From: Pristiophorus japonicus
Lineage: Eukaryota
Direction: 5' to 3'
DNA: 64,000 bases
Assembly (NCBI RefSeq): GCF_044704955.1
Contig: NC_091995.1
Coordinates: 37,758,001 to 37,822,000, forward strand
How positions within the stretch are numbered: the stretch's first letter is position 1; each line of letters starts with the position of its first letter. Below, piece by piece: positions 10,901 to 64,000 of the stretch. Below the pieces are notes generated by a model. It did not search any database. It worked only from the letters and a program-made list of their open reading frames with translations, and was not told the DNA's origin. The position numbers and the translations under genes are program-made.

Positions 10901-11966
10901 TGATGATTGAGACCTGGACAGTGGGTCCTTCTGATAATCCAGACTCATAAAATTGATTGTTCTGACATATCAGACACAGAACGATTGGCTTTCTGATCAT
11001 CAGGCCCAGACAGTAGTTGTTTATTATCATTCAGACGCAGATAGTGGCTCATTCTGATCATTGACACCCAGGAAATTGAATGTTCTTAAAATCCAGGCAG
11101 ATAATGTGATACTTCTCATAAATCAGACCCAGACATTAGGTCATTCTGATAATTCTGACCCAACTAATAGGTCATCATCTTACTTCAGCAGCAGACAATG
11201 GGATTTCTGGTCGTTCAGATCCAGGCAGTGGGTGTTTCTGTTAATTCATACCCATACACAGTGCATATCTTGAAATTTCTGTAGACAGTGAGTATTTATG
11301 ACATTTCTGAACCAGCAATCAAACATTTCTGATAACTCACATGCAAACAGTGAATCTTTACGACAATTGTGACCCAGACAGTGCATGGTTTGATAATTCA
11401 GACCCAGACAGTGGGTCCTTCCAATAATGCAGACTCGGAAAATTGATCATTGTGACAAGTCAGACCAAGGCAGAGTGGCTTTCTGATGACTCAGACCAAG
11501 ATAGTTGGTGTTTCTTATAATTCAGACTCAGACATGATGTGCTGATGATACTTCAGATGCAGGCAATGTCTTTTCTGATAATTCTTATTTAGACAGTGTG
11601 GCCATCTGATAATTCATACCGAGACTTGTTGCTTTTCTGATAATTGAATTCAGACAATATGTACCACTGATAATTCAGGTCCAGATAGTGGGTTTTTATG
11701 ATAATTGAGTTCAGACAGTATGTACTACTGATAATTCATACCCAGACAGTGTTTTTTATGATAATTGAATTCAGACAGTATGTACTACTGATAATTCATA
11801 CCCAGACAGTGGGTTTTTATGATAATTGAATTCAGACAGTATGTACTACTGATAATTCATACCCAGACAGTGTGTTTTTATGATAACTGAATTCAGACAG
11901 TATGTACTGCTGATAATTCAGGTCCAGACAGTGGGGTTTTATGATAATTGAATTCAGACAATATGT

Positions 11967-12883
11967 GGCAGTGTGAGCTGCGAGGAGGATGCTGTGAGGC
12001 TGCAGAGCGACTTGGATAGGTTAGGTGAGTGGGCAAATGCATGGCAGATGAAGTATAATGTGGATAAATGTGAGGTTATCCACTTTGGTGGTAAAAACAG
12101 AGAGACAGACTATTATCTTCATGGTGACAGATTAGGAAAAGGGGAGGTGCAAAGAGACCTGGGTGTCATGGTACATCAGTCATTGAAGGTTGGCATGCAG
12201 GTGCAGCAGGCGGTTAAGAAAGCAAATGGCATGTTGGCCTTCATAGCAAGGGGATTTGAGTACAGGGGCAGGGAGGTGTTGCTACAGTTGTACAGGGCAT
12301 TGGTGAGGCCACACCTGGAGTATTGTGTACAGTTTTGGTCTCCTAACCTGAGGAAGGACATTCTTGCGATTGAGGGAGTGCAGCGAAGGTTCACCAGACT
12401 GATTCCCGGGATGGCGGGACTGACCTATCAAGAAAGACTGGATCAACTGGGCTTGTATTCACTGGAGTTCAGAAGAATGAGAGGGGACCTCATAGAAACA
12501 TATAAAATTCTGACGGGGTTAGACAGGTTAGATGCAGTAAGAATGTTCCCAATGTTGGGGAAGTCCAGAACCAGGGGTCACAGTCTAAGGATAAGGGGTA
12601 AGCCATTTAGGACCGAGATGCGGAGGAACTTATTCACCCAGAGAGTGGTGAACCTGTGGAATTCTCTACCACAGAAAGTTGTTGAGGCCAATTCACTAAA
12701 TATATTCAAAAAGGAGTTAGATGAGGTCCTTACTGCTAGGGGGATCAAGGGGTATGGCGAGAAAGCAGGAATGGGGTACTGAAGTTGAATGTTCAGCCAT
12801 GAACTCATTGAATGGCGGTGCAGGCTAGAAGGGCCGAATGGCCTACTCCTGCACCTATTTTCTATGTTTCTATGTTTCTATGT
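11967..12883 (+). mobile_element. Young 5'-truncated CR1 LINE (open ORF2 C-terminus plus 3' UTR)
   Basis: Uninterrupted 269-aa ORF 11973-12782 (LQSDLDRLGEWANAWQMKYNVDKC...RPHLEYCVQFWSP...FTQRVVNLWNSLP) and a (ttctatgt)n tail. Confidence 0.95.
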
Positions 12884-22789: not shown

Positions 22790-25700
22790 AAGCAGGTGTC
22801 AGGGAGGCAGGGAGAATGGCAGTCGGGAGCGTGATTTCAAGGATTGAGGTATATAAATGGGCAGGAGCAGCGGCAGTCGGCAGCGGCAGTCTGGAGTCAG
22901 AGGTCGAGGATCGAACCTTATAAAAGGGCAGGATCAGCGGCAGTCGGAGTGGGAGGTAGAGGATCAAGGTCTCTAAAAGGCCAGGAGCAGCGGCAGTCAG
23001 GAGCAGCATTCAGGAGCAGGAGGTCGAGGATCAAAGTCTATAAAAGGTCAGAAGCAGTGGCAGTTGGGAGCAGGAATTAGTGCAAAGGTAACCAAAGAAG
23101 TAATAAAAAAAATCGAAGTGTGATGTCACAGACAAGCGGGTAAGTGATTGGCTGGTGGATTGGTGAGTATATAATCTTTTTTGTTTTCTTTTTCTTTTCT
23201 AATCAGTAGGAAACCTATGGCATTGTTGCAAAATTAAGTTAATCTAAGCGTTAAGTCATGGCAGAAGAGCCCAGACCCATGTCATGCTCCTCCTGTGCTA
23301 TGTGAGAAGTCAGAGACGCTGTACTATGTGTGCAGGAAGTGTGTCCAGCTGCAGCTCCTGACAGGCCGCATTGCGGCACTGGAGCTGCGCATGTATTCAC
23401 TCTGAAGCATCCGCGAAGCTGAGGATGTTGTGAAGAGGATGTTTAGTGAGTTGGTCACACCGCAGGTAAAGGTTACACAGGCAGATAGGGAATGGGTGAC
23501 CATCAGGCAGAACAGTGGAAGGAAAGTAGTCAAGTGGTCCCCTGAGGTCATCTCCCTCCAAAACAGATATATGATTTTGGATACTGTTGGGGGGGATGGC
23601 TCATCGGGGAAGGCAGCAGCAGCCAAGTTCATGGCTGTTATGTATGTAAACCTGCAATTATCATGTCTAAGTACCAGAGGGCTTATCCCCTGGAGTCCTA
23701 AGGTATCCCCCAATCCATTAGGAGCACCTTTCTAGAAGGAGGCCTCTCAGGCTGGAAATGCAATCTGAGATCTGCAATAAAGGAATATGGTCTCACTTAC
23801 TTTGAGCATGCCGTATCTAGTCTGACTTCTTATCCAAGACATAACAACTCGTGACGAGATGACGAACCCCAAGGCAACATTGCAGAGAACTGTGGGCTAC
23901 CTGGAGAAATTTTCAGAGGGAGCTGATTGGGAGACCTTTGTGGAACAACTTGACCAATACTTCATAGCCAATGAGCTGGAAGCAGAAGGGAACGCTGCCA
24001 AATGAAGGGCGATCCTCCTCACCATTTGCAGGGTACCAACAAATGGCCTCATGAAAAACCAGCTCGCTCCAGCAAAACCAACAGACAAGTCATATGCTGA
24101 GCTGTGTACACTGGTCCGGGAGCATCTAAACCTGAAGGAAAGCGTTCTGAAGGCAAAGTATTGGTACTTCACCTACAAGAGCTCGCTGAGCTAAGGCGCC
24201 TTGCAGGCCATTTCGAATTTGAAGTGCACTTGCAGCATATGCTCAGGGACTTGTTTGTATTTGGCATTGGCCATGAAGAAATACTTCACAAACTTTTGAA
24301 GGTAGAGATCTCAACCTTGAGTAAAGCCATAGCGTTAGCCTAGGCGTTTATCTCCACCAGTGGTAACCCCAAACAAATTTCCCAGTACTCTAGTGCTGCA
24401 GCAAATACTGTGAACAAAGTAACTTTGTTTTCGAATCGAAATGTATATGGAAGTACTTACACGTCTATAGCTGCACGTCCGCAGGTGACTCAGAGTCCGC
24501 CATCAAGGGTGATGAATACAAAGCAATTCGCACGTTGTTGGCGCTGAAGGGGTGATCATTGATTCCATTCATGCCGCTTCAAAGGATACATTTGCAAGGG
24601 CTGTGAAACAATTGGACAGCTCCAACTTTTGTGCAGGCTTACTGCAAACCGTGCTAATCCTGCAAACCATCATGTTGCAGAGTAGGACAGATCCACCGTG
24701 GATCATGACGAACCAGAGCCTCAGGCCGAGGAGGCAATGGTATATGGCATGCAAACATTTACCAAAAAGTGTCCCCCGATAATGCTGAAGGTTGAATTAA
24801 ATGGACTCCCGGTGTCCATGGAGCTGGACACGGGCGCAAGCCAGTCCATATGATTAAAAAGACTTTCAATAAGTTGTGGTGCATCAAGGCTTCAAGCCAG
24901 TCCTGACTCCCATTCGCACCAAAATCAGAACATACACAAAGGAACTGATTCACATAATTGGCAGTGCTACCGTAAAGGTCTCCTACGATGGAGCGGTACG
25001 TGATTTACCACTCTGTGCTACCGGGCGATGGCCTGATGCTGTTCAGCAGGAGCTGGCTGGGAAAGATACTCTGGAACTGGGATGATGTCCGAGTGCTTTT
25101 GTCCTTCGAAGACTCCTCATGTGCCCAGGTCCCAAGCAAGTTCGAACGAGGCATCGGGAAGTTCCAACGAGCAAAAGTGCAAATCCATTTGATTCCGGGG
25201 GAGCGTTCCATCCATCACAAGGTGAGAGCAGTACCTCACATGATCAGAGAGAGGGTGGAGATCGAGCTAGGCAGGCTGCAATGAGAGGGCATCATTTAGC
25301 CGATCGAATTCAATGAGTGGACCAGTCTGATTTTTCCAGTCCTCAAGGGAGTTGGCACCTTCAGAATCTGTGGTGATTACAAAATAACTATCATTCATTT
25401 CTCACTGCAGGATCAATACCCACTACCAAAGGCAGATGACCTATTTGTGTAGCTGGCGGGAGGGAAAACATTCACAAAACTGGATTTGACCTCGGCCTAC
25501 ATGGTGCAGGAGCTGGAGGAATTTTAGAAAGGCCTCACCTGCATCAACACGCACAAAGATCTTTTCGTTTACAACAGATGCCCGTTTGGGATTCGATCGG
25601 CTGCGGCGATACTCCAGAGGAACATGTAAAGATTGCTGAAGATGGTCCCGTACACCATCGTCTTCCAGGACGATATCTTCCTGCAGGTCGGGACACCGTC

Positions 25701-28700
25701 GAGCAGCTGCGGAACCTGGAGGAAGTATTTAGTCAGCTTAACCATGAGGGGCTCAGGCTAAAATGCTCGAAGTGCTTTTTCCTGGTGCCTGAAGTGGAGT
25801 TCCTCTGGCGAAGAATCATGGCGGATGGCATCAGGCCCACCGATTCAAAGACGCAGGCAATCAAAAACGCACCAAGACCACAGAACGTGACGGAGCTGCG
25901 GTAATTTTGAGGACTGCTGAATTATTTTGGTAACTTCTTACCGGATCTTAGCACATTGTTAGAAACCCTGCACTCTTTACTGCATAAAGGACATGAATGG
26001 GTATGGGGTAAAAGCCAAGAAAATGCCTTTGAGAAAGCTAGGAAATTTTTAGATTCAAATAAATTGCTTGTGTTGTGCGATCCATGTGAACGTTTGATAC
26101 TAGCATTTAATGCATCGTCTTACAGCGTTGGGTTTGTAATTGCCACAAGCTAATGAATTTGGGAAAATGCCAATTGCCAATTGCCAGTTGCTTATGCATC
26201 CAGCAGTCTGTCTAAGGCCGCAAGGGCCTGCAGTGTGATTGAAAAATAATGATTAGCGTGTGTTTACGGGGTAAAGAAAATGCATCAATATCTGTTCGGG
26301 CTCAAATTTGAATTGGAAACTGACCATAAGCCGCTTGTATCCATCTTTTCTGAAAAATATGGGTATCAATACGAATGCATCGGCCCGCATCCAGAGATGG
26401 GCGCTCACGTTGTATGCATACAACTATTTCATGCGCCATGGGCCAGGCACAGAAAACTGTGCCGATGCTCTCATAGGCTACCATTTACAACCACAGGGTT
26501 GGAGGATGGCACAGCCTGCAGAGTTAGTTATGGTAATGGAAGCATTCAAGATTGAGCAATGACTTATTATCGCCCGACAAATTAGAAGATGGATGAGTCA
26601 GGAGCCCTTACTGTCCTTCGTAAAGAACTGTGTGCTCCATAGGAGTTGGTCTCGTGTCCCATTAGAGATGCAGGAAGAAATAAAGCCGTACCAGTGGCGC
26701 AATGATGAAATGTCTTTACAGGCAGACTGCCTCCTATGGGGTAATCGGCTAGTTGTGCCAAAAATGTTGTGCAGGGATACTTTCATTACTGATCGACACA
26801 GTACCCACCCAGGCATTGTAATGATGAAAGCGATAGCCCGGTCCCATATGCGGTGGCCCGATATCGATGCAGAATTAGATTCCGGTGTGCACAAATGTAA
26901 TACATGTTTACAGTTAAGTAATGCACCCAGAGAAGCACCACTAAGTTTGTGGTCTTGGCCCTCCAAACCGTTGCCTAGCGTTCATGTCAACCATGCAGGC
27001 CCATTCTTGCGAAAAATGTTTTTAGTGGTTGTAGATGCGGACTGCAAGTGGATTGAATGTGCGATAATGGCGGCAAGCACGTACGCTGCCACCAGAGAAA
27101 GCCTACGGACCATGTTTGTCACGCACTGTCTGCCAGAAGTCCTTGTAAGTGACAATGGACCGTGCTTTACCAATGCCGAATTCAAGGAATTCATGACCCG
27201 CAATGGGGTCAAACATTTCACATCTGCCCCGTTTAAGGCAGGATCCAATGGTCAGGCAGAACGAGCAGTTCAAACGATCAAGCAGAGCTTGAAAATGGTA
27301 ACTGAAGGTTCACTGCACACTCGCTTATCACAAGTACTGCTTAGTTACCACACAAGACCCCATTGGCTCACTGGGGTCCTTCCCACTAAATTGCTCAAGA
27401 AAAGGGCACTTAAGACAAGCATCTCATTAGTCCACCCTGATCTACACGAACAGGTGGAATGCAGGCAGCTTCAATAAAATACATATTATTATCGCGCAAA
27501 TATGTCACACAAAATTGAAGTAAATGATCCTGTAGTTGGGTTGAAATATGGACAAGGTCCCAAATGGATTCCTGGCACTGTTTTGACCAAAGAGGATGTT
27601 TGTGGTGAAACTCGCAAATGGACTCACCTGCAGCAAACACTTGGACCAAACCAAACTCAGATTTACTGACTTTCCAGAATAACCCACCATAGACTCTAAC
27701 TTTTTCAACTCTCCAACACACACACAAGTGGCAACCGACCCAGCGGTTGACCAAGAAGCAGAACCCTCCACCCGCAACAGCCCAGCAAGACTCACAACCC
27801 CCAGCAGTCCAGCAAGGCCAGCTGCGAACCAGCCCAGCGAAGGCCCAACAAAAGATTCACCAAAACCAGCATTTGCACCGAGATGATCAACCAGGGAAAT
27901 GAAGGCCCCAGATCTACTCACATTGTAAATAGTTACACGATTGACTTTGGAGTGGAGTGCTGTTCTGTATGTAAATCTGTAATTACCATGTCTCACCATC
28001 AGAGGGCTTATCCACTGGAGTCCCTAGGGATCCCATAATGCCTTGGGTGCGTCTATTTATAAGGAGGCTTCACAGGTTGGAGAGGCACTCTGAGGTCTAT
28101 AATAAAAGACTACGGTCACACTTATTTGAGCATGCAGTACCTAGTCTGACTCCTTATCCAAGACATAACAATGGCTTCATGGTGGCTCTGCTGCACAAGA
28201 GGGCAGGAAAAAGAGCGGGAGAGCTATATTGGTCGGGGATTTGATCGTAAGTGGAATAGATAGGCATTTCTGCGGCCGCAGAAGTCCAGGATGGTATGTT
28301 GCCTCCCTGGTGCAAGAATCAAGGATGTCTCGGAGTGGCTGCAGGGCATTCTGGAGGGGGAGGGTAATCAGCCCGTTGTCATCGTACCAACGATATAGGT
28401 AAAAAAACGGGATGAGTTCCTACAAGCTGAATTTAAGGAGCTAGAAATTAAATCAAAAAGTATGACCTCAATGGCAGTAATCTCAGGATTACTAACAATG
28501 CCATGTGCTAAATAGAGTAGATGTAGCAGGATAGTTAAGAGGAATACGTGGCTTGAGCAATGGCGCAAGAGGGAGGGAATTAAATTCCTGGGACATTCAA
28601 ACCGGTTCAGCGTAGGTTGGACCAGTACAAAAAGGACGTTGTGCACCTGGGCAGGACCGGAACTGATGTCCGAGTGGGAATGTTTGCTAGTGCTGTTGGG

Positions 28701-32566: not shown

Positions 32567-35500
32567 GATTGTGTTCCTTACACAGATGAGACTGCACACA
32601 GGGAGGTTAAAGTAACAGTGATCTCACTCTTTATTAAGACACTCCAGAGTGAGGAACAGGCCTTCGGAGCCGGCTTATATACATTGCTCCCAAGGGTTGC
32701 TGGGATCCCTTGGGACTTCAGCGGATGTGCCTCCTGGTGGCAGAATATGTGAGTGCATGCTTTACAGATACACAACATCACTCCTCCCCCAAAATCAAAA
32801 TGAAAACTATTTACAATGCGAGGCACTCGGGAGCTTTTCTTTCCCTCGTGGACTTCCTCGGTACAAATGTCTGTTCTGGTGTGTTGGCTGTGCCCTCGCT
32901 GGGCTGGCTGGTTGTTGGCCCTGCAGGGCTGCTGAGTGACCCTGTCCTTGCTTGTCTATTGGGCGTGATGGATTCAATGTCCTGCTCTGGAGTTGTGTCG
33001 TTGATCCTTTAGGTGTGTGTTGTGGGATCGAAAAAGGTGGTGACTGCTGTGGGTTGTTCAGGGCAGTCTGTAAACTGCAGCCACGTTTTGTCCAGGCGCT
33101 TTCTGCAAATTTGTCCATTGTTCAGTTTGACTACAAACAACCTACTCCCTTCTTTAGCTATCACCGTGCCCACGATCCACTTTGGACCATGTCAATAGTT
33201 GAGCACATACACAGGGACTTTCAGGTCAATTTCCCATGACACAGTGGCGCGAACATCATTTACATTTTGTTACTGCCGCCTGCTCTTTACCTGCTCATGC
33301 AGGTTGGGGTGGACCAGCGAGAGTCTGGTTTTAAGTGTACTTTTCATGAGTAGCTCATCCGGGGGCACCCCTGTGAGCGAGTGGGGTCTCGTGCGGTAGC
33401 TGAGCAGTAGTCGGGACAGGCAGGTTTGGAGTGAGCCTTCTGTGACTCGTTTAAGGCTCTGTTTGATTGTTCTACTGCCCGCTCTGCCTGCCCATTGGAG
33501 GCTGGTTTAAACGGGGCGGAGGTGACAAGTTTGATCCCATTGCGGGTCATGAATTCTTTAAATTCGGCACTGCTGAAACATGGCACGTTGTCACTGACCA
33601 GTATGTCAGGCAGGCCGTGGGTGGCAAACATGGTCTTCAGACTTTCAATGGTGGCGGTGGCGGTGCTTAACGACATTATTTCACTTTCAATCCATTTTGA
33701 AAAAGCATCCATCACCACCAGGAATATTTTCCCGAGAAATTGAATAGTCGACATGTATCCTCGACCATGGTCTGGAGGGACAGGACCCCAAATTAGTGGT
33801 GCGTCTCTGGTTGCATTGATCAGCTGAGTACATGCGGCATTGCCGTACACAGGACTCTAAGTCAGAGTCGATACCGCGCCACCACACGTGGGATCTGGCT
33901 ATCGCTTTCATCATTACTATACACAGGTGTGTGCTGTGGAGATCCGAGATGAACGTCTCCCTGCCATTTTTGGGTAGCACTACACGGTTACCTCACAACA
34001 GGCAGTCTGCCTGAATGGACAGCTTGTCCTTTCGCCACTGGAAAGGCTTAATTAGCTCTTGCATTTCAACGGGGATGCTGGCCCAGTTCCCATGCAGTAC
34101 ACCGTTTGTTTACTAGGGACAACAGAGGATCTTGGCTGGTCCAAGTCCTAATCTGGCGGGCCGTGACAGGTGATTTATCTTTTTCAAATGCTTCCATGAC
34201 CATCAACAAGTCTGCGGGCTGTGCCACCATCAACAAGTTTGCAGGCTGCGCCATTTCCACCCCCGTGGTGGGCAATGGTAGCCGACTGAGGGCATCCGCA
34301 CAGTTCTTGGTGCCTGGCCTGTGGTGGATGGTGTAGTTATATGCTGATAGCGCGAGTGCCCACCTTTGTATGCGGGCTGAGGCATTCGTATTTAACACTT
34401 GTTTTCAGCGAACAGGAATATGAGGGGCTAGCGATCAGTTTCCAGTTCAAATTTGAGGCCAAACAGGTACTGATGCATTTTCTTTCCCCCGAACACATAC
34501 GCTAATGCCTCTTTCTCAATCATGCTGTAGGCCCTCTCTGACCTAGACAAGCTCCTGGAGGCATAGGCGACAGGTTGCAATTTCCCTGCAGCGTGAGCTT
34601 GTTGTAATACATAGTCTCTGTACGACGAAGCATCACATGCTAACACAAGTCTTTTACATGGGTTATACAATACAAGCAGCTTGTTGCAGCATATAATGTT
34701 TCTGGCTTTCTCAAAAGCAATTTTTTTTTTTTTTCCCGATACCCAGTTCTCACCTTTATGCAATAGCACATGTAGGAGCTCGGAGATGATGCTTAACCCT
34801 GGGAGAAAGTTACCAAATTATTTGAGGAGTCCTCGGAATGACCGCAGCTCTTTGACGTTCTGTGGCCTGGGCGCGGTCCTGATAGCCTCTGTCTTGGAGT
34901 CTGTGGGCCGAATGCCATCCGCCGCAATCTTTCTCCCCAAAAACTCCACTCCACGCATTTCGATCTCTTCAGACACAGCCCTACGCGATCCAGTCGCTGG
35001 AGGACCTCGTCCAGGTTTTGTAGTTGATGGACGGTGTCCCGACTCGTGACCAACATATCGTCCTAATAAACTACCATGCGTGGTACCAACTTGAGTAGGC
35101 TTTCCATGTATCTCTGGAAGATCGCTGCAGCTGACCGAATTCCAAACGGGCATCTGTTGTAGATGAGCAATTCCATGTGCGTGCTGATGCAGGTGAGGCC
35201 CTTTGAAGAATCCTCCAGCTCCTGCGTCATGTAGGCCGAAGTCAGGTCGAGCTTGGTGAATGTCTTGCCTCCTGCCAGCATCGCAAATAGGTCGTCTGCC
35301 TTAGGTAATGGGTATTGGTCCTGTAGCGAGAAACGATTAATAGTTACTTTATAATCGCCGCAAATTCAGACAGTGCCATCACTTTTGAGTACTGGAACAA
35401 TCGGGCTGGCCCACTCGCTGAATTCCACTGGGGAGATAATGCCCTCGCGTTGCAGCCTGTCCAGCTCGATTTCCACTCTCTCCCTCATCATGTGATGTAC

Positions 35501-37132
35501 CGCTCACGCCTTGTAGTGAATGGGACGTGCCTCTGGGAACAAGTGGATCCGCACCTTCGCCCTGCAAAGGTTTCCAATGCCTGGCTCAAAAAGGGAAGGA
35601 AATTTGAATTTGTTAAGAACCTGGGTACATGAGGACTCATTGAAATGTGATAGCGCTCGGATGTCATCCCAGTTCCAGCAGATTTTGCCCAGCCAGCTCC
35701 TTCCAAGCAAAGTGGGGCATCACCCGGGACAATCCAGAGTGGCAGTTCATGCACCGTGCCCTCGTAGGTGACTTTGGCCATGGCCCTGCCCAGGACAGTG
35801 TTGAGCTCTTTGGTGCACATTCTAAGTTTCATGTGGATGGTGCTCAGGGCTGGTCTGAGTGCCTTGTTGCACCACAGTGTATCAAACATCTTTTTACTCA
35901 TGATGGATTGGCTAGCGCCAGTTTCCAGTTCCATGGCTACGGGTAAGCCATTCAATTTTACATTTAGCATTATAGGTGGACATTTTGTCGAAAATGTGTG
36001 CACCCCGTGTACTTCAGCGTCTGCTTTTTCTCTCTGAGACTCAAAACTGTTTTGATCCACCATGAACCGATCTTCCTCTGCCAAGTTGTGGTTAGCAGGT
36101 TTTACACAGCTTGAAGCTCGTCTGCAAGCTCGTTGGACATGCCCCAATGTTCCACAGATCTTGCAATCATACCCTTTGAAGTGGCATGAATCAACTGAAT
36201 GGAAGCCTCCACATCGCCAACAAGGTGTGAATTGCCTTGCATTCATCCTTTGTTGCAGACTCTGAGACATCTGGGTCACTTGAGGCCTGCTGGCAGTTGC
36301 ATACTCGTGTTTTCTGCCATGTACATTTCTGCTCGCAAACACAGTTCCAATTATTTTATGAACATTGCTCGCACTTGTGTGCTGAAAGAATTGTTTGGTG
36401 TCATCACTGGTGGACACAAACGCTTGTGCTCTCGCAATGGCCTTACTGAGGATTGATGTCTCGACAGTCAAAAGTTTTTGTAGGATGGTCTTGTGGCCAA
36501 TGCCCAGTACAAAAAAGTCTCTGAGCATCTGCTCCACGTAGCCATCAAACTCACATTGCCCTGCAAGTCGCCTTAGCTCGGCGACGTAGCTCGCCATTTC
36601 CTGACCTTCAGGTCGCTGGCACGTGTAGAACCGATACCTCGCCATCTGCACACTCTCCCTCAGGTTAAGTTGCTCCCGAACCTGTGTACACAGCTCCTCA
36701 TATGACTTATCTGTGGCTTTCACCAGAGCCAGAAGATTCTTCATGAGGCTGTAGGCAGACCGTGAGGAGGACCGTTCTCCTTTTTGCAGTGCTTCTTTCT
36801 CTGTCCAGCTCGTTGGCTACAAAGTACTGGTCTAGCCATTCAACACAGGCTTCCCCATCTTCACCCTCCGGCAACTTCTCCAGGATTGCCACAGTTTGCT
36901 GCATCTTTGTATTGGATTCGTATACTCGTCGCCAGTTATTGTGTTCCTAACACAGATGAGACTGCACACAGGGAAGTTAAAGTATCAATGACCTCAATCT
37001 TCAGTGAGGAACAGGCCTTAGGGGCCAGCTTATATACAGTGCTCCCAAGGGAGGCTGGGATCCCTTGGGACTTCAGGGGATGCGCTCCCTGCTGGTGGAG
37101 TATGGGAGTGCATGCTTTGTAGATACACAACA
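32567..37132 (-). mobile_element. Gypsy/Ty3 LTR retrotransposon, full length, decayed, related to 23636-28170
   Basis: LTRs 32567-32777 and 36937-37132; 5-bp TSD gaaac; PBS actggcgacgag; PPT gggggaggag; 418-aa gag-protease ORF with two CCHC knuckles; RT, RNase H and integrase fragments. Confidence 0.95.
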
Positions 37133-50969: not shown

Positions 50970-53900
50970 CCATTAGTAAAGGCAAAAAAGGTCCCGGACC
51001 TGATGGCCTGCATCCTAGGTTCATATCATTGCGAAAATGCTGGAATCCATTATTAAGCAAGTAGTGGCATGACATTTAGGAACACTTAATTCAATCAATA
51101 AGAGTCAGCATGCATTTTTTGAAAGGGAAATCATGTTTGACACATTTTCTGGAGTTCGGTGACAATGTAACAAGAAGGGTGGATAAAGGGGATCCAGTAG
51201 ATATAAGAACATAAGAATTAGGAACAGGAGTAGGCCATATAGCCCTTCGAGCCTGCTCCACCATTCAATAAGATCATGGCTGATCTGGTCGTGGACTCAG
51301 CTCCACTTACCCGCCCTCTCCCCATAACCCTTAATTCCCTTATTGCTTAAAAATCTATCTATCTGTGACTTGAATACATTCAATGAGCTAGCCTCAACTG
51401 CTTCCTTGGGCAGAGAATTCCACAGATTCACAACCCTCTGGGAGAAGAAATTCTTTCTCAACTCGGTTTTAAATTGGCTCCTCCGTATTTTGAGGCTGTG
51501 CCCCCTAGTTCTAGTCTCCCCCACCAATGGAAACAACCTCTCTGCCTCTATCTTGTCTATCCCTTTCATGATTTTAAATGTTTCTATAAGATCACCCCTC
51601 ATCCTTCTGAACTCCAAGGAGTAAAGACCCAGTCTACTCAATCTATCATCATAAGGTAACCCCCTCATTTCTCGAATCAGCCTAGTGAATTGTCTCTGTA
51701 CCCCTTCCAAAGCTAGTATATCCTTCCTTAAGTAAGGTGACCAAAACTGCACGCAGTATTCCAGGTGCGGCCTTACCAATACCTTATACAGTTGCAGCAA
51801 CACCTCCCTGCTTTTGTACTCCATCCCTTTCGCAATGAAGGCCAACATTCCATTTGCCTTCCTCATTACATGCTGCATCTGCAAACTAACCTTTTGGGAT
51901 TCATGCACAAGGACCCCCAGGTCCCTCTGCACCACAGCATGTTGTAATTTCTCCCCATTCAAATAATATTCTCTTTTACTGTTTTTTTTCCCCAAGGTGG
52001 ATGACCTCACACTTTCCGACATTGTATTCCATCTGCCAAACCTTAGCCCATTCGCTTAACCTATCCAAATCTTCTTGCAGCCTCTCTGAGTCCTCTACAC
52101 AACCCGCTTTCCCACTAATCTTAGTGTCATCTGCAAATTTTGTTGCACTACACTCTGTCCCCTCTTCTAGGTCATCTATGTATATTGTAAACAGTTGTGG
52201 TCCCAGTACTGATCCCTGTGGCACACCACTAACCACTGATTTCCAACCGGAAAAGGACCCATTTATCCCGACTCTCTGCTTTCTGTTCGCCAGCCAATTC
52301 TCTATCCATGCTAATACATTTCCTCTGACTCCGTGTACCTTTATCGACTGCAGTAACCTTTTGTGTGGCACCTTATCGAATGCCTTTTGGAAATCTAAAT
52401 ACACCACACCTATCGGTACACCTCTATCCACCATGCTCGTTATATCCTCAAAGAATTCCAGTAAGTTAGTTGAACATGATTTCCCTTTCATGAATCCATG
52501 CTGCGTCTGCTTGATTGTACTATTCCGATCCAGATGTCCCGCTACTTCTTCCTTAATGATAGTTTCAAGCATTTTCCCCACTACAGATGTTAAACTAACC
52601 GGCCTATAGTTACCTGCCTTTTGTCTGCCCCCTTTTTTAAACAGAGGCATTACACTAGCTGCTCTCCAATCCGCTGGTACCTCCCCAGAGTCCAGAGAAT
52701 TTTGGTAGATTATAACAAATGCATCTGCTATAACTTCCACCATCTCTTTTAATACCCTGGGATGCATTTCATCAGGACCAGGGGACTTGTCTACCTTCAG
52801 TCCCATTAGTCTGTCCAGCACTACATCCCTAGTGATAGTGATCATCTCAAGGTCCTCCCTTCCCACATTCCTATGACCAGCCATTATTGGCATGGTTTTT
52901 GTGTCTTCCACTGTGAAGACGGAAGCAAAAAAAATTTTTAAGGTCGCAGCCATTTCCACATTTCCATTATTAAATCCCCCTTTTCATCTTCTAAGGGACC
53001 AACATTTACTTTAGTCACTCTTTTCCGTTTTATATATCTGTAAAAGCTTTTACGATCTGTTTTTATGTTTTGCACAAGTTTACCTTCGTAATCTATCTTC
53101 CCTTTCTTTATTGCTTTTTTAGACATTCTTTGCTGTTGCTTAAAATTTTCCCAATCCTCTAGTTTTCCACTAACCTTGGCCACCTTATACGCATTGGTCT
53201 ATGATTTGATACTTTCCTTTATTTCCTTGGTTATCCACGGCTGGTTATCTCTTCTCTTGCCGCCCTTCTTTTTCACTGGAATATATTTTTGTTGCGCATT
53301 ATGAAAGAGCTCCTTAAAAGTCCTCCACTGTTCCTCAATTGTGCCACCATTTAGTCCTTGTTTGCAGTCTACTTTAGCCAACTCTGCCCTCATCCCACTG
53401 TAGTCCCCTTTGTTTAAGCATAGTACGCTCGTTTCTGATACAACTTCCTCATCCTCAATCTGTATTACAAATTCAACCATATTGTGATCACTCATTCCGA
53501 AAGGATCTTTTACGAGGAGAACGTTTATTTTTCCTGTCTCGTTACACAGGACCAGATCCAAAATGGCTTGCTCCCTTGTCGGCTCTGTTACATACTGTTC
53601 TAAGAAACAATCCCTTATGGATTCGATGAATTCCTCCTCCAGGCAACCCCCTACGATTTGATTTGACCAATCGATATGTAGGTTAAAATCCCCCATAACT
53701 ACTGCCGTTCATTTTTCACATGCCTCCATTATTGCCTTGATTATTGCCCGCCCCACTATGAAGTTATTATTTGGGGGCCTATAAACTACACCGACTATCT
53801 CTAATCCCCACCCACAATGATTCAACATTTTGTTCATTGAAGCCAAAATCATCCCTCACAACTGCCCTGATATCATCCTTTATTAACAGAGCTACCCCAC

Positions 53901-54950
53901 CTCCTTTCCCTTCTTGCCTATCTTTCTGAATCGTCAGAAACCCCTGTATATTTAATTCCCAGTCTTGGCCACCTTGCAACCATGTTTCTGTAATGGCCAC
54001 CAAATCATACCCATTTGTAATGATTTGTGCCATCAACTCATTTACTTTATTTCTAATGCTGCGTGCATTTAGGTAGAGTGTTTTCATCCTAGTTTTTAAA
54101 CCATGATTTTTAGTTTTTACCCCTCCTGCAGCCCTTTTATATTCAGTGTCGCTTTTTGTTTCTTGCCTTTGGATGTGTTTGGATTTCCTTAAAACATTAG
54201 AAAAGGTGCAACATAAAAGGGAACTGCACAAGATAAAAGCTCATGGGTTTGAGGGGAACATATTAGCATCGATAGAGGATTAGCTAATTAAAAGAAAACA
54301 GAGAGTTGTGATAATTTTCAGGTTGGCAAATTGTAACTAGTGGAATGCCAGAGGGATCGGTGCAGGGACCTCAACTATTTACAATCTATATTAATGACTT
54401 GTGTGAAGGGCCCGAACGTAGACAAATTTCCTGATTATTCAAATGAGAAAGCAAGTTGTGAGGAGTATGCAAAGAATCTGCAAAGGGATATAGATAGGGT
54501 AAGTGAGTGGGCAAAAATTTGACAGATGGATTATAATGTGAGAAAATGTGAGATTATCCACATTGGTCGGAAAAATAAAAAAGCAAATTATTGTTTAAAT
54601 GTGAGTGATTAGAAAATGCTGCTGTACAAAGGGATCTGGGGGTCGTTGTACTTGCAGCTCAAAAATTAAGCATGCAGGTAGAGCAAATAATTAGGAAAGC
54701 AAATGGTGTCTTGCCCTTTATTGCAAAGGCATTGGAGTATAAAGCTAAGTAAGTCTGTCTACAAATGTACATGGTGTTGGTAACACCAAACCTGGAGTAG
54801 TGTGTACAATATTTGTCGCCTAATATAAGGAGGTATATACTTGCATTGGAGGCAGTTCAGTGACAGTTCACGAGGTTTGTTTGTCATATGAGGAAAGATT
54901 GAATGGTTAGACCTACACTATTGGAGTTTCGAAGAATGAAAGGTGAAAAG
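50970..54950 (+). mobile_element. Old CR1 fragment (50970-51204 plus 54170-54950) split by a younger CR1
   Basis: RT sequence ...gggtggataaaggggatccagtagat breaks at 51204 and resumes with ggatgtgtttggatttcc at ~54170. Confidence 0.75.
51205..54165 (-). mobile_element. CR1 LINE, nearly complete ORF2 (APE plus RT), a few frameshifts
   Basis: Successive ORFs [62 protein letters not shown]; (ttcttatg)n tail. Confidence 0.95.
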
Positions 54951-57394: not shown

Positions 57395-57565
57395 ATCTGA
57401 ATGTCCTCTTTCTGTGCTGTAAGATTCAATGATGGATATAAATAGGCAAAAAGGAGGCCTGCAACTGCAGATGGGATCCTCCTGCAAAATGCATTAGTAA
57501 CTATTTTAAGCATGAACAGTGTGAATCCGACTACTTTCTCCAGAGCTGCAGCAGGTCGATGATGG

Positions 57566-58190
57566 TGTTAGCGTAAGTGTTTTATCAGAAGAATCACTCA
57601 ACACTCAGAGTCAGTTCCAACGCCAATGCAGCCTTTATTAACGCCAGCGGGGGGAGGAAGCCTCAGGACTGGATCCAGGCACTTCACTCCGCAGAACTAA
57701 GGGTTTCATGGATCTTTATATGTTTTACAACAGTTTACTACAGTTACATACAACAGTTTACTACAGTTATATTAGACCAATAGATAGAGTTAGTCTCTAA
57801 ACGTAAAGTGGCTCATGTGTTGCCAAGAGATGTGTTGCTAAGAGATGTGTTGCGAGGAACGACTCATGTTCCAGGCCCCCCTTTATCTTACTGTCCTTGG
57901 GTGCTGTCTTTGGTAGCCTCCTTATCTTAATCCTGTTACAGAGTCGTATTGTCCTTACTTCCACCAGAACATTTAGTCCTGAGGCCTGGCTGATTAAAGA
58001 CACCTGCAGAATTTGCTTGTTATTCCTGTGTATGGGAAACAATAATTATCAGTTTCCAGGAATGCGATCTAATTCAGCTAACAGAAATCTGTTGAGGCTT
58101 CACTGGTAGCCATTTTATGATTCAAGTTACATATAGTTCTAACCTTATACTACAGGTGCCATTGCCCGAGGGTACCTAATGCCTGCAACA
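57566..58190 (-). repeat. 3' LTR
   Basis: Direct repeat of 63142-63782; minus-strand TATA-like catataaa (~57715-57722) and AATAAA (~57634-57639). Confidence 0.95.
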
Positions 58191-58203
58191 ATTCCCTCCT
58201 TTC
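58191..58203 (-). promoter_or_regulatory. Polypurine tract
   Basis: Minus strand gaaaggagggaat abutting the TG of the 3' LTR. Confidence 0.85.
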
Positions 58204-58327
58204 GGTAAGGGGACTAGTACTAATCCCCTTTAACCGACCGCCCTACACTTGTTAGTTTTTGTGCACGGCCCGGTACTCCCTGCCTCAACGTGCTGGCCAG
58301 TCACGCTGTTTCAGGAGTCCCGGTTGC

Positions 58328-60450
58328 TTAGATCAAATTGAAAAAGGTCAAATCCTCCTTCCCCTTTATTAGATAGGCTTGTTTAGTATTTGAGGACCGG
58401 TCATGGGTCCCTCTTCATAGTGCATGGTGCCTGCATGCCTGGCAGGCCATTATGCCCCATGTTATTGTATCCCGACCAGTATGTGTGAAATTATTTGAAT
58501 CCAAGAATGGATGTTCACATTTATTCCCCAGTCCCAGACCTTTCTCCACCAACTCTGACTTTGTAAGTCTATATCGATATCTTCTCCCAGTACTTTGATT
58601 TTAGTTTGCAGTTGGTGGTAGAGCTTTACGGATTGACCCACCCTGAGCCTCAATTCTCGTAATACTTCGGTTAGATGTGGGATAGGGACCTGATCTGGCT
58701 CGTCATAATCCTGCAAATGATCATGTAGCTGATGGGTTACCTCAATAACTTCGGGCTTCCGGCGCCTAACCTGGGTGATATGTGCTTGCCCGATCGTGAC
58801 AGGTCATAGTGGCGTAAAGCAAAAGTTCGGCTGTGGTATTGGGCACTGCAGGTCATTATACTGGTATGAACGCTCTGTGGCAGAGATGCAGTATCTTCCC
58901 TTCCCTCCATAGACTGCTCTCGCGAAGTGCCTGTGTGCGGGCACTATTTATAGTACACACCCATCGGTTTGATTTAAACCGCACTCGTCTAGCTCACCTT
59001 GGCCTACCGGGTGAGGGTATACTGTGATCTCCCCCCTTTGCTTGCAATCTGTTAGGGAAATCCCGGTAATATGTTGTTTCGACGAACGGCGGAGGTGGTG
59101 GTCAGATAAAACTCCATAGTTCATGTGATTTTCCCGTATTACTCCGATATTCTCTAGTTGGTACAGGGGGAATGGTCCTGAGTCTGGCGTGGTTATAGGG
59201 ATCATCAGGACTATCCCTATCCCAGTATTTCTTCTATCTGGCAGTCTGGAATTGCTGGGTGTACTCGGGTCAGTCCCTTCAGAGTACAGTTATCCAGAGT
59301 CCCCCTCTGGTTTGCCAACTGAGCCAAATGTGAACGGTCTATCCAATCGGGCACTTCCCCACGTTGGATCTGGTCGAGATTGTGGCGGATCTGTCCCACC
59401 ATCCACAGACCATAAGCGTGACAGAGTTGCCCCTGTCTTTGCTTTCCTGTATCTTCTTTTTCTCTATCAATGAGGTGATTAATGGTATTGACGTGAGCTT
59501 CCAGGACTGAGATGCCATCCAACTGGATTTCCGCACCCTCCTTTCTTAGGTTGGCTTGGTCTTCCTGGTTTTGCTCCACCCTCTCTAATAACCCCTTTAT
59601 CACTCCTCTAAGCTGTTCCACCCTCTCATTTAACACTTGTATATCTGTCGAGTTTACTACGGAATCCCTGTATTGAAAAGGGTAGCAATATCATTAACTA
59701 TTACCCTCTCTATCCTGGGGGCTGACCCCTGTCCTCGGAATCTACTGGCACCCATTGCATCGGCAACCTGCTGCATTACAACTTTACTTAATACATCGTA
59801 CATTTTCCTTGACTGTTCTGTACAGTATTCCGGCATCTGAATGCCTGAAATATTGATCAGGACAGGCACAATTTCATGTTTTACATTATCATATAATAAT
59901 TCCCCTTCGTTGTACATTACAATTCCATGTTCTGGTCCCTCAGTAGTTATGGGACAAGGCAGTTCCTCGGGCAATGTAGTGGTACTTATGGGGCGCGGTA
60001 TCGGAGGGGGTGGAAGTATACATACAATGATATTGCAGCCGCCCCCACCTCCTCGTAGTACCCACACAGCCCCACACCCTTTTTGCGGATGGCTGATTGC
60101 TGGGATTGTCCCGGAGGTGCGCAAATTATGCCGAAAGTACATTCATCGGGCCCTTTGACATCCCTCCGTTTAATGCAGCTGCTCCTTATACCCGTGGAGC
60201 ACTGTACACATACCCGGTTCTTATTAGGATTTACTTGTAACCATGCATTAAAATAATTCCTGTCCTTGCTCCAATCCTTGGCTGCTGGCATGCACATTCC
60301 ATCCGTTAAATTAAACAAGACTCCATAGTTCATGTAGTGGTTTATTTCCTGAGTGCGCTGCAATCCGTTGGTATCGTCCAGTATTTGCGTGGGTCTTGAG
60401 GTTCCCAGTATCATGAGTCCCCAGAGTCGGAGTCACCACTGCGGTCCCAT
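58328..60450 (-). pseudogene. env: Envelope glycoprotein (class I fusogen, F-protein-like), about 8 disablements
   Basis: Reassembled: signal-like LRLWGLMILG; Cys-rich N domain; Pro-rich hinge; degenerate cleavage site RIER; fusion peptide/HR1 VIVNDIATLFNTGI(S)VVNSTDIQVLNERVEQLRGVIKGLL; Cys-rich core; HR2 LYHQLQTKIKVLGEDIDIDL; WWRKVWDWG; TM IQIISHILVGIQ[fs]ITWGIMAC. Confidence 0.85.
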
Positions 60451-60577
60451 CTTGGTGAGTGTTTTATCTGAAAATTTTAAACAGATAGCCTGGTCGTCAC
60501 CAGGTGTTAGGTTCTGGTCTACTTGTGTCGTTGTCACTCTGTAGAATCGGAGGTAAGGATTAGGTTAACCATATTCT

Positions 60578-60730
60578 TTATAGTCGTACCATCTCTATCA
60601 CTTCATGTCCCTGTCTGGACTGCCGTCGGTTTTGCGTTTGGGCCTGCTGTGCTCGAGTCTGCACGATGACCCATCTAAGTATTATCCAAACTCCAATCAA
60701 CACCAATGCCACCATTATTCCTCCAAACAT
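60578..60730 (-). CDS. Putative 50-aa single-pass membrane accessory protein
   Basis: Manually translated open frame MFGGIMVALVLIGVWIILRWVIVQTRAQQAQTQNRRQSRQGHEVIEMVRL*, below the ORF-track cutoff. Confidence 0.45.
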   Translation of the reverse strand: MFGGIMVALVLIGVWIILRWVIVQTRAQQAQTQNRRQSRQGHEVIEMVRL

Positions 60731-63080
60731 CGTTGTCTGCTTTACCGTTAGGTTGGGTTTGTGGACTACACCTACCCATCGTGGAGTATATTGGCTCTAT
60801 TGCCATAAGTGATAGTGCTATGGCTGCGCACTGCACTATCCGTCAAGTCCCGTTTTTTTTAAACATCTCTTCCAGCCTTTTTATCTTAGCTTTTAACTCT
60901 TCAATTTGTTTTGTTTGAGTATCTATTTCTTTATTGTATCAGGCAAGTTTTATTACATAAGCTAGTTCTGTTTTTATTTTTGTTTCCTCTGTTAGGTGAG
61001 TCTATTTTTCTATTAAGAAATCCAAATTAATAATGTTCAGTATAAATAGCTGTCAATGGAAAGGGTTACTCCTTTCCAGGTTTGTAAGAAGACCTGATGT
61101 CATTACGTGACTTCACGTAATCATCTGAAAAAAAAGTCTTTGTGCCTTCAAAACTTGCTTTGAAATTAGGAATCCGTTAAACAGCATAAATCATTAGAGT
61201 AAACTCCAATGTTTTCTTAACTTCTAATTCAAGTACTTGCCAATTAATTTTTTTTTTAAATTGATTTAAAACGAGACCACACATACAATAGCAATTTTGT
61301 TTACTGAAATTCAATTATTTTTTTTTTTTATTTCTCTCTCAGCACAAAATCTAAACATCCTGCCAGTTCCATTTCCTATAAGAATTTAAAAATTCTCTAA
61401 TTCCCAGTTTTTTTTTCTTTCTGTGCTGAGCTCGCATAGCTTAGATTTTCTCCTCGTTATCTTCAAAATCCTCCTGCTTGTTTCGACTGTTCGGGACTTT
61501 TCTTGAAAAACACTGTCCATTTTGGAAATCTTTTCAAACTGCATTGAAACTTTCTCATAATTTAAAATCATTCGTTTACTTTCAAAGTGGCGTCTTTATC
61601 TTTTTCTTTTCTCCATAACTGGAATGGAGTCTAGCTTTGAGGGTTTGAGGGCTGCTTTTCGTTATCTCAAAATGCTCCAGTTTCAAAGTCGTTACTAAAG
61701 CTTGCTGTTTTTAACATTTTTCAAAAGTCCCTTTACACCTTCGCAGATAGCTCGCCACTCGCCCAGGAGTTTGACCTGATCAGATTTAATTTAATAATAA
61801 TTTTTTTTTAATCCACCTCAGTATTTTCTGTGCCTTCTCTGAATATCTCAAAATCCCAATTCAAACTTTGTAATTTCAATCTTTATTTAAAACCTTTTTT
61901 TTTTGTTTTGAGCTAGAAGCTTTCTTAAAAGGCATTCTTTATCTCATTCCGAGACTAAATTTATGTCTTTCCATCCAATGTAATCAATCATTGCATGTTT
62001 TCTTTCGACAAGTAAATTATTTTTTTTTAACCACCGGGACCATGTATTTTTTATCTTTTGCTCAACAAACCTATCCTTTGTATATTTCCTAGCTCCGTAA
62101 CTTATCATCCGAATAAATCCACACCTGTGTTTCTAACTTAAAATGTCTTAAAACTTCCCACATACAGGACAACACTACAAAGGGTTAGCTAAAATAAACA
62201 GACACTTGCATCCCTCTTCCAACCAGGCTTTCAGAAACATGACAACATAAAAATTCATTCCACAGTCACAAAGTCACACAGGGACTCTCACTCAACGACC
62301 AGACATTTACAAAAGTCTCTCTTCTTTCCTATTAATTGTTTTGGCCGGCTCTATTTTTGGATTCACGACCTTTCAGGGAATTCGTAGTTTTATCTAAATA
62401 ATTCCTCACATAACTTTTGTAGTGGACTACCGATATTGGTTTTTCCAGTCCTTCACCCACCATTCCCGTTGGGCTGCTGGCAGGTCCCACCCTGCTCTAA
62501 TCATTTTCTCAATTAGTTTATTTTGCTTTTCCGCCAGATGGCGGGTAAGGGACCCTTCTGATCCCCACTCGAGTTTACTACTTTATTGGCCATTTCTGGG
62601 TAGGACTAGAACCATTTCGAATCTACTCTCAGAGGTTTGCCTTTTACCTCGCACAACTTGTAGTAGACCGTCTCTGGGCTGCTGTCAGGTCACAAGTCTG
62701 CTGTTACACAAACTTATACAATTCTTAAAATGTGTTTTAGCAATTCCCGCAGTGCTCTACATATCCTTAACGGCTACCTACCACCGCTTTGTCTGTTGGT
62801 CCGACCCTGTTCATAGGTTTAGATTCCGCTGGTTGCTGTGCACTGCCTTGTCTCTGGGGTATTTCAAATCACACTACTGGGTCCAGAAGATGTCACTTGG
62901 TATCACAATCCCACGGTCTAAGTGTGTTCCCTACGCCTACTTGGTTCCTGGCCATCACGTGGGACAAAAGTCCTCTTAATTCAGGCTCAGGCTAGACGTT
63001 TGAGATATTAGACCGCCTCCTCATGTCGATCAACCGACTTCCACCTTCCGCACCCTTTATAATTAAAAATCGTTTTTTAT

Positions 63081-63088
63081 ACTCACCC
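63081..63088 (-). promoter_or_regulatory. Putative major splice donor of the LTR element
   Basis: Minus strand gg|gtgagt about 35 nt downstream of the PBS. Confidence 0.6.
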
Positions 63089-63121
63089 GTGTTTTTCCAA
63101 GGGCGTCCAGCGACTCCGGGA

Positions 63122-63140
63122 AATCCTGCCGACTACGCCA
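63122..63140 (-). promoter_or_regulatory. Primer-binding site, tRNA-Ser
   Basis: Minus strand TGGCGTAGTCGGCAGGATT, 1 nt after the LTR; complementary to the vertebrate tRNA-Ser 3' end (...AATCCTGCCGACTACG-CCA). Confidence 0.93.
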
Positions 63141-63141
63141 C

Positions 63142-63782
63142 TGTTAGTGTTCGTGTTTTATCAGAAGAATCACTCAACACTCAGAGTCGGTTCCAATGCC
63201 AATGCGGCCTTTATTAACGCCAGCGGGGGGGAGGAAGCCTCAGGACTGGATCCAGGCACTTCACTCCACAGAACAAAGGGTTTCATGGATCTTTATATGT
63301 TTTACAACAGTTTACTACAGTTACATACAACAGTTTACTACAGTTACATTAGACCAATAGATAGAGTTAGTCTCTAAACGTAAAGTGGCTCTTGTGTTGC
63401 CAAGAGATGTGTTGCTAAGAGATGTGTTGCTAAGAGGTGTGTTGCTAGGAACGACTCATATTCCAGGCCGTCCTTTATCTTACTGTCCTTGGGTGCTGTC
63501 TTTGGTAGCCTCCTTATCTTGATCCTGTTACAGAGTCGTATTGTCCTTACTTCCACCAGAACATTTAGTCCTGAGGCCTGGCTGATTAAAGACACCTGCA
63601 GAATTTGCTTGTTATTCCTGTGTGTGGGAAACACCAATTATTAGTTTCCAGGAATGTGGTCTAATTCAGCTAACAGAAATCCCTTAAGGCTTCACTGGTA
63701 GCCATTTTATGATTCAAGTTACATATAGTTCTAACCTTATACAAAAGGTGCCGTTGCCCTCGGGTGCCTATTGCCTACAACA
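63142..63782 (-). repeat. 5' LTR
   Basis: Direct repeat of 57566-58190 with one extra 15-bp unit; flanked by TSD atgg at 63783-63786. Confidence 0.95.
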
Positions 63783-64000
63783 ATGGGATCCTGCAGGTCA
63801 CTGATGAAGCGATAGCAGAAGTGCAGATCTCCAGGTTGCGCAGAACCACTGCCCCTGCAGTTTCCTCTGCCCACTGCCCAGGACTTCCCAGCAATGCGGC
63901 AGGACTGTAGCAGATCTGCAGCATTAGCTGACTACAGATAACAGTGGTTCGCCTCTATTTATAAACATCAGGAGTGAATTGTTCACTTTTACCCGCTGTG

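Follow-up and report, generated by a model that had tools for sequence, protein, structure and literature searches.

Here, we propose that the element at positions 57566-63782 of a 64,000-nt stretch of the Pristiophorus japonicus genome (contig NC_091995.1, positions 37,758,001 to 37,822,000; hereafter the window) is very probably a broken, env-only provirus of a canonical retrovirus family, and not a lokiretrovirus, with an envelope protein (Env) predicted to be of the paramyxovirus fusion protein (F) type, and that its copying into the germ line was likely the work of a helper. This is based on the complete relatives of the provirus in the same genome, on the phylogenetic placement of their enzymes, on profile and structural comparison of their Env, and on the mosaic make-up of env-only copies. 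Coordinates at the locus are positions in the window, and all features of the element lie on the minus strand. Papers are cited by PMC number.

A canonical retroviral family

An env search of the 5.9 Gb genome returned at least 150 scored matches of 87-100% identity. First-look searches with 400-nt probes gave 1569 and 1211 candidates for env, 1033 for reverse transcriptase (RT) and 2374 for an A-rich segment, counts which are not copy numbers and which suggest a family size of the order of a thousand. We examined 70 copies, a non-random set selected for similarity or for long frames. Of these, 12 are complete and 41 env-only, 16 lack gag but carry pol (15 of them of a single type of 8.3-8.8 kb), and 1 is of another kind. 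Env-only copies measure about 5.9-6.5 kb and complete relatives 9.3-9.4 kb, the latter showing the order long terminal repeat (LTR), primer-binding site, gag, pro, pol, env, polypurine tract and LTR, as in canonical Retroviridae. Their gag, with two CCHC knuckles, is followed by one in-frame TGA, a pol of about 1180 codons (protease (PR), RT, tether, RNase H and integrase (IN)) and env. The gag-pol TGA junction was present in all 6 complete copies checked, and snakehead retrovirus (SnRV) has TAG at the same place.

For comparison, lokiretrovirus (loki) elements were metagenome contigs found by an RT motif from the supplement of PMC7947760, and contigs of SnRV and walleye dermal sarcoma virus (WDSV) were identified via Gag look-up. 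Of 182 RT segments extracted, 37 were placed in a tree with one Gypsy family as the root. All retroviruses including the shark family form a clade in it (98/96) with loki outside, and this clade is also recovered when WDSV is included (24 rows; 97/96). Within the 37-row tree, the family groups with shark and teleost endogenous retrovirus (ERV) proteins (95/88). Its RT is 55-56% identical to Pimephales and Heterodontus ERV proteins, 44% to SnRV, 36% to loki and 23-25% to Gypsy (measured against one Gypsy family of the same genome), and falls outside Metaviridae (Ty3/Gypsy errantiviruses). The PR-RT piece matches foamy virus RT at E 4e-29, murine leukaemia virus at 2e-24 and Ty3 at 2e-10.

A clade uniting the family with loki is rejected by approximately unbiased (AU) tests on each enzyme: RT at p 0.001, IN at p 0.006 and RNase H at p 0.001. 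RNase H identity is 25-26% to loki and 41-47% to SnRV, gamma and epsilon retroviruses. For IN, it is the exclusive loki clade that is rejected, yet a wider, weakly supported group contains both, in a tree with no CGIN1 row. The family RT carries LPQG, and the loki motifs VPLSRW and PFG..NSP are missing from it, whereas the loki rows carry PFG and VPLSRW. Of the two CCHC knuckles in Gag, the second is close to that of SnRV; loki Gag has none by Pfam. Nor was a close loki RT found in the genome, where 150 of 128,739 candidates were scored and the best of them matched at 47%. The foamy RT clade excludes the family (fish foamy-like ERVs were not in the tree), there is no Foamy_virus_ENV match, and Gag has CCHC. 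Hence the label of lokiretrovirus is rejected on the RT tree (98/96), the AU tests (p 0.001-0.006), the CCHC Gag and the absent RT motifs, and the family is an unnamed fish/shark lineage of snakehead-like grade among canonical retroviruses.

The initial annotation had read the element as a loki-like lineage in an elasmobranch. The cartilaginous-fish part of that claim is supported by the Env homologues: the nearest named proteins (84-91%) are labelled Pristiophorus japonicus, and others come from Mustelus, Chiloscyllium, Heterodontus, Scyliorhinus, Heptranchias and the skate Rhinoraja, the most distant (about 20%) being from the frogs Pelodytes, Mantella and Xenopus. The loki part falls with the RT of the pol-bearing relatives, the AU tests and the motifs. 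SnRV-like ERVs are known from elephant shark (PMC4422223), the clade Huo is widespread (PMC6001957), cartilaginous-fish ERV RTs belong mostly to clade III (PMC11089739), and loki elements were reported from 0 of 3 chondrichthyan genomes.

Two further proteins, P0071 (Pyxicephalus) and P0086 (Latimeria), have an RT inside the canonical retroviruses, an IN that groups with loki (100/99) and an RNase H that groups with loki together with foamy viruses (100/99); they may possibly represent an intermediate or recombinant lineage. In the shark genome itself, a more distant sister ERV family on contig C2 (about 267.20-267.21 Mb, L086-L087) has a pol of 49-60% identity, the same tRNA-Ser primer site and a Gypsy element inserted within its env. 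A second related family (L045-L048) has a pol of about 60% identity, LTRs of about 400 nt, another primer site and env fragments only.

An envelope of predicted F type

The Env model was made from an unbroken relative with 56 homologues, as a monomer, and had a predicted local distance difference test (pLDDT) of 69 and a predicted template-modelling score (pTM) of 0.40. Foldseek gave 226 matches in the PDB at E<=0.001, and 38 of 38 among the matches listed were paramyxovirus or pneumovirus F (best 1e-9). By VIA, the model matched respiratory syncytial virus (RSV) F with a Z of 11.6 (root-mean-square deviation (rmsd) 18.4, 320 aligned) and Nipah F with a Z of 10.8 (rmsd 4.5, 279 aligned). Model residues 166-557 align with F of RSV, human metapneumovirus, parainfluenza viruses and henipaviruses, and the class Ib trait, F domains I-III drawn from both subunits, appears in the predicted structure. 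Env is thus predicted to adopt a paramyxovirus-F-type (class Ib) fold, as the initial annotation had read from its layout. Among predicted viral structures, the best named match was Env of walleye epidermal hyperplasia virus, and WDSV, a lispivirus, baculovirus F and feline foamy Env were also matched. A glycoprotein labelled fish filovirus (Wenling thamnaconus; BFVD A0A2P1GML9) matched the Env model at E 9e-12. Atlas features indicate Baculo_F and Fusion_gly at 0.87-0.88, which serves as a lead only.

At the level of sequence profiles, the claimed homology to loki Env is borne out (98.1%, E 1e-13), and the same Env profile detects WDSV (96.9%), SnRV (90.6%) and foamy Env (84.9%), while TLV-coat Env is not detected (0.2%). 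A hidden Markov model (HMM) of Env scored 60/50 bits for loki, 39 for WDSV, 24/15 for foamy and 20 for SnRV, whereas none of 7 gamma-type Envs exceeded 2.7 bits and no reversed or shuffled control exceeded 4.6. The marks of gamma-type Env (TLV_coat, immunosuppressive domain, CX6CC) were not found in the family Env. The earlier statement that a gamma/epsilon/beta-type transmembrane subunit is lacking holds in that there is no TLV_coat or gamma-type match, but its lumping of epsilon with gamma-type was wrong for WDSV, whose Env lacks CX6CC and matches the shark Env.

Pfam gave no fusogen family for the window env pieces or the unbroken relatives, and among 52 homologues one, a chimeric protein, matched Baculo_F at E 0.001. 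Env of the C2 sister family matches PF00523 at E 2e-6, below the curated cut-off, and Env of the recovered loki elements matches it weakly. A single-sequence PDB search with Env found nothing, plain BLAST of the family Env against loki Env was marginal, a two-sequence loki profile alone misses SnRV and foamy Env, and a Gypsy query found nothing in the viral contigs.

In the unbroken relative, the post-cleavage subunit is about 460 aa (about 440 in the initial annotation, whose layout of fusion peptide, heptad repeats, Cys-rich core, WW segment and transmembrane segment is otherwise upheld). Env is predicted to have a signal peptide and to be cleaved at a basic site, after which it would refold like RSV or parainfluenza F, the fusion peptide inserting and heptad repeat 1 (HR1) zipping with heptad repeat 2 (HR2). 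The Cys-rich head of about 120 residues likely binds the receptor. Residues 28-150 of this head gave no atlas match and no alignment with the heads of Ig-bearing relatives, and heads thus appear exchangeable on a common F core; the shark head may nevertheless have an Ig-like fold. In shark gene models, Env fragments are joined to the host genes fbxo15, Niban-like and cadherin-like (P0025, P0030, P0040), fusions which may be annotation artefacts or exonisation.

How did a canonical retrovirus come by such an Env? Its resemblance to Env of loki, foamy viruses and two fish retroviruses suggests that the F-type fusion machine is probably an ancient trait which retroviral lineages have in common. 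The strongest competing explanation, which we regard as unlikely, is that, in fish, a canonical backbone took its env from a lokiretrovirus, the likeness then being the mark of a lateral swap and not of ancestry. The shark Env is indeed nearer to loki Env than to that of SnRV or foamy viruses, domain swapping is frequent in these viruses (PMC7947760), and another lineage shows loki-like RNase H and IN. However, the profile also detects Env in WDSV, SnRV and foamy viruses, so several captures would be needed; identity to loki Env is only about 20%, with homologues spanning sharks, a skate and frogs; and the other Envs carry large insertions, so the compactness of loki Env may account for its higher score.

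Anatomy of the provirus

The window copy retains the cis-acting structure that the initial annotation described (paired LTRs, ATGG on both sides, a 19-nt tRNA-Ser primer site and a 12-purine tract). Beyond that annotation, pol is absent and nearly all of gag is gone. The LTR ends are TG...CA.

63783..63786, no strand: target-site duplication ATGG, right
63142..63782, minus: 5' LTR, 641 nt; TATAAA about 63292-63297, AATAAA about 63210-63215
63122..63140, minus: primer-binding site, tRNA-Ser(AGA), 19 nt
62583..63121, minus: leader, about 82% like the leader of complete copies; likely the packaging region
62436..62582, minus: gag remnant, first 50 or so gag codons, 71% to a relative's Gag
60975..62435, minus: A-rich non-coding segment, 1.4 kb, in place of gag-pol
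60729..60974, minus: decayed gag N-terminal fragment, sister-family-like (34% over 94 aa, E 1e-9)
58331..60432, minus: broken env; Cys-rich head, fusion peptide, HR1, F-like core, HR2, WW segment, transmembrane segment, short tail
58192..58203, minus: polypurine tract, 12 purines, preceding the 3' LTR
57566..58190, minus: 3' LTR, 625 nt
57562..57565, no strand: target-site duplication ATGG, left

The env remnant of about 700 codons, also recognised earlier, survives in five pieces of 58-89% identity to the unbroken relative. Besides stops and a degraded cleavage site near 59700, it has six frame-breaking indels, located near codons 140, 256, 401, 437, 454 and 655 as counted in the frame of the relative. 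The A-rich segment is common to the env-only and gag-less classes and missing from complete copies.

The primer site is the complement of the host tRNA-Ser(AGA) 3' end: there are 1022 exact genomic matches to the tRNA end (control 0), and 4 of 4 fetched matches are tRNA-Ser(AGA) genes. Large tandem arrays of such matches, with a period of about 1.95 kb, lie on contig C23 (11.7-20.5 Mb). Three main types of 19-nt primer site occur among 48 copies (30, 13 and 2), and the rarer types presumably also fit serine tRNAs. A 4-bp target duplication is not constant across the family, where 30 of 48 scored copies (62 tried) have 5 bp and 16 have 4 bp, within the same classes. U3 varies between subfamilies, and R-U5 is common to them.

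The two LTRs differ by 5.1% (593 matches and 32 mismatches over 625 aligned sites; Kimura two-parameter distance 0.053), plus a 15-nt repeat indel. This gives an insertion age of about 120 My at the rate of 2.2e-10 assumed for sharks in PMC4422223, or about 12 My at a mammalian rate of 2.2e-9, either figure being rough as the mismatches cluster near the LTR ends. The window copy, which belongs to an older env-only subfamily, is present at 96-100% in eight places on contig C19 (37.56-39.27 Mb). Among four of these that were checked, both flanks are shared in one; in the other three the left flank is shared, and the right end lies beyond the fetched stretch. Shared flanks point to a single insertion, which host segmental duplication would afterwards have multiplied.

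Elsewhere in the 64-kb window, there are no Rfam matches and no tRNA genes, and the other long frames are mostly decayed Gypsy-type LTR elements (25400-28000, 33300-36800) and CR1/L2-type pieces of long interspersed nuclear elements (11950-12800, 51300-54200), as labelled by eye.

Env-only copies and their probable helper

In light of the window copy having no enzymes of its own, how might it have reached the germ line? It keeps all the cis signals, from which, with the lack of enzymes, we infer mobilisation by a helper; retroviral complementation in trans is established (PMC10435555). Env-only copies in general have frameshifts in common and are mosaics, and are thus likely helper-dependent passengers; a complete helper of the same family likely copied the window provirus into the germ line. 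In such a cycle, Pol would be made by read-through of the in-frame stop, and env-only RNAs would be packaged, reverse-transcribed and integrated by helper proteins. Co-packaging would permit template switching, by which env-only copies may gain helper env and U3, and their own env would mostly be a non-coding passenger.

Frame-breaking indels in env occur in 0 of 8 complete, 15 of 15 gag-less and 19 of 19 young env-only copies, at shared sites, and a frameshift near codon 72 is common to 19 env-only copies, old and young. Among older env-only copies, picked for long frames, 4 of 16 have no such indel. A 60-row env tree, from which duplicate and interrupted copies were excluded, has env-only copies interleaved with complete ones and not in one clade (at least 3 forced changes). 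In addition, 4 of 6 young env-only copies tested are 98% old-satellite-like over the first 100 codons and then 96-100% young-helper-like. This mosaic and interleaved pattern points to repeated recombination with a helper. All classes include copies whose two LTRs are identical: among complete rows 5 of 11 (three distinct insertions, judged by their flanks), among gag-less copies 6 of 15 and among young env-only copies 7 of 19. The family was therefore active very recently. Env-only elements also occur in head-to-tail arrays that share an LTR, with a 5.6-kb period (L030, L110, contig C4:27.25 Mb).

Several points weigh against our proposal. The copies examined are not a random sample; the structural matches have TM-scores of about 0.3 and rest on a monomer prediction with a pTM of 0.40, and a single-sequence Env model was unusable (pLDDT 35). 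The RT trees do not fix the order of the basal retrovirus branches; they were built with a site-homogeneous model and hold no ERV-L/ERV-S or Odin rows, with loki represented by two close rows and Gypsy by two to three. The grouping with SnRV by RT is weak (support 43/65), the AU test (p 0.33) neither rejecting nor showing the link. Lastly, shared env variants in env-only copies have an omega of 0.13-0.18, which would also fit selection on Env.

This last point, together with the 4 of 16 older copies (chosen for long frames) free of frame-breaking indels, favours the view that env-only copies were kept for a working Env, whether for gag-less partners or for the host (receptor blocking or fusion). 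We consider this improbable, as all 19 young env-only copies are frameshifted, many at shared sites, and so spread after env broke; the window copy itself has six frame-breaking indels; and complete copies with an open env exist. For passengers of a helper, the low omega of shared variants is explained by their inheritance from that helper through recombination, although selection in the satellites may have contributed.

Comparison with known systems

Among named viruses, RT identity is highest (44%) to SnRV, which with SnRV-like ERVs (clade Huo/class III grade; elephant-shark CmiERV lineage I) has gag-stop-pol in one frame, the same RNase H group, a homologous Env and a last zinc knuckle that, with its surroundings, is 54% identical (41 aa). 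However, a sister relation by RT is unsupported, the shark family has two knuckles and SnRV one, its primer is tRNA-Ser, its Env is about 705 aa compared with about 1130, and the large 3' open reading frame or pol insert was not seen in it.

Lokiretroviruses (PMC7947760; PMC9040795) share a compact F-like Env, homologous over 392 columns, and a tether with a second RNase H, though these latter are common to all retroviruses. They differ in the placement of RT and RNase H and, less firmly, of IN, and the shark family has a CCHC gag, an extra Cys-rich Env head and no smc gene seen. It is accordingly highly improbable that the element is a genuine lokiretrovirus (lokiortervirus) of a cartilaginous fish: the Env profile does match loki Env best by sequence and both have tether and RNase H, but a clade with loki is rejected for all three enzyme domains, the RT motifs (LPQG against PFG and VPLSRW) and zinc knuckles (two against none by Pfam) differ, and the 47% match was the genome's best to loki RT among those scored.

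Of the walleye retroviruses, WDSV has an Env homologous over 463 columns, and in the set of predicted viral structures no named virus matched the Env model better than they did (E 8e-14, 7e-9), but their RT lies in the gamma/epsilon part of the tree, their Env is far longer and they carry accessory genes. When the Env profile is compared with PDB sequences, the top match is foamy Env (8rm1, E 0.004), a class Ib fusogen (PMC11468914) that has an F-like core in common with the shark Env. The latter lacks the foamy leader peptide and inserted receptor-binding domain; the shark family also has a gag with zinc knuckles, a pol in frame with gag and another RNase H group. Paramyxovirus and pneumovirus F (PF00523) and baculovirus and errantivirus F (PF12259) resemble the shark Env in predicted fold and layout, whereas identity is about 10-14% and the shark Env has no Pfam match.

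Significance

Env has been described as F-like in loki (PMC7947760) and foamy viruses (PMC11468914), and errantivirus F is treated in PMC13524379, which in its excerpts defers vertebrate ERVs to a later report. Wang and Han, who detected no resemblance of loki Env to that of canonical retroviruses, favoured separate origins for the two (PMC7947760; PMC9040795), and Fernandez et al. assigned class Ib to foamy Env alone, with Env of orthoretroviruses in class Ia (PMC11468914). The excerpts of PMC12583693 expect further retroviral cases and name none, and those of PMC12193657 and PMC4977317 leave SnRV Env unclassified. In the full-text literature, a scope that leaves out most subscription papers, we found neither the shark family nor an F-type Env of SnRV or walleye viruses described; Calcraft et al. 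2024 (Cell) may cover some of these links.

We thus have a canonical retrovirus with a predicted class Ib Env, and a profile that links loki, foamy viruses and two formal orthoretroviruses (SnRV and WDSV), a link which runs against the published preference for independent Env origins. Taken as a whole, we lean narrowly towards an F-type (class Ib) Env being ancestral to vertebrate retroviruses (loki, foamy, snakehead-like, walleye epsilon and the shark lineage), with gamma- and HIV-type Envs as later replacements, and the shark family as a compact bridge through which the link shows in sequence, one that very recently moved in the germ line alongside a swarm of env-only satellites. With the profile link, structure and phylogeny can directly test where retroviral Env came from, in a young, high-copy shark ERV family whose env-only and gag-less dependents recombine with their helper.

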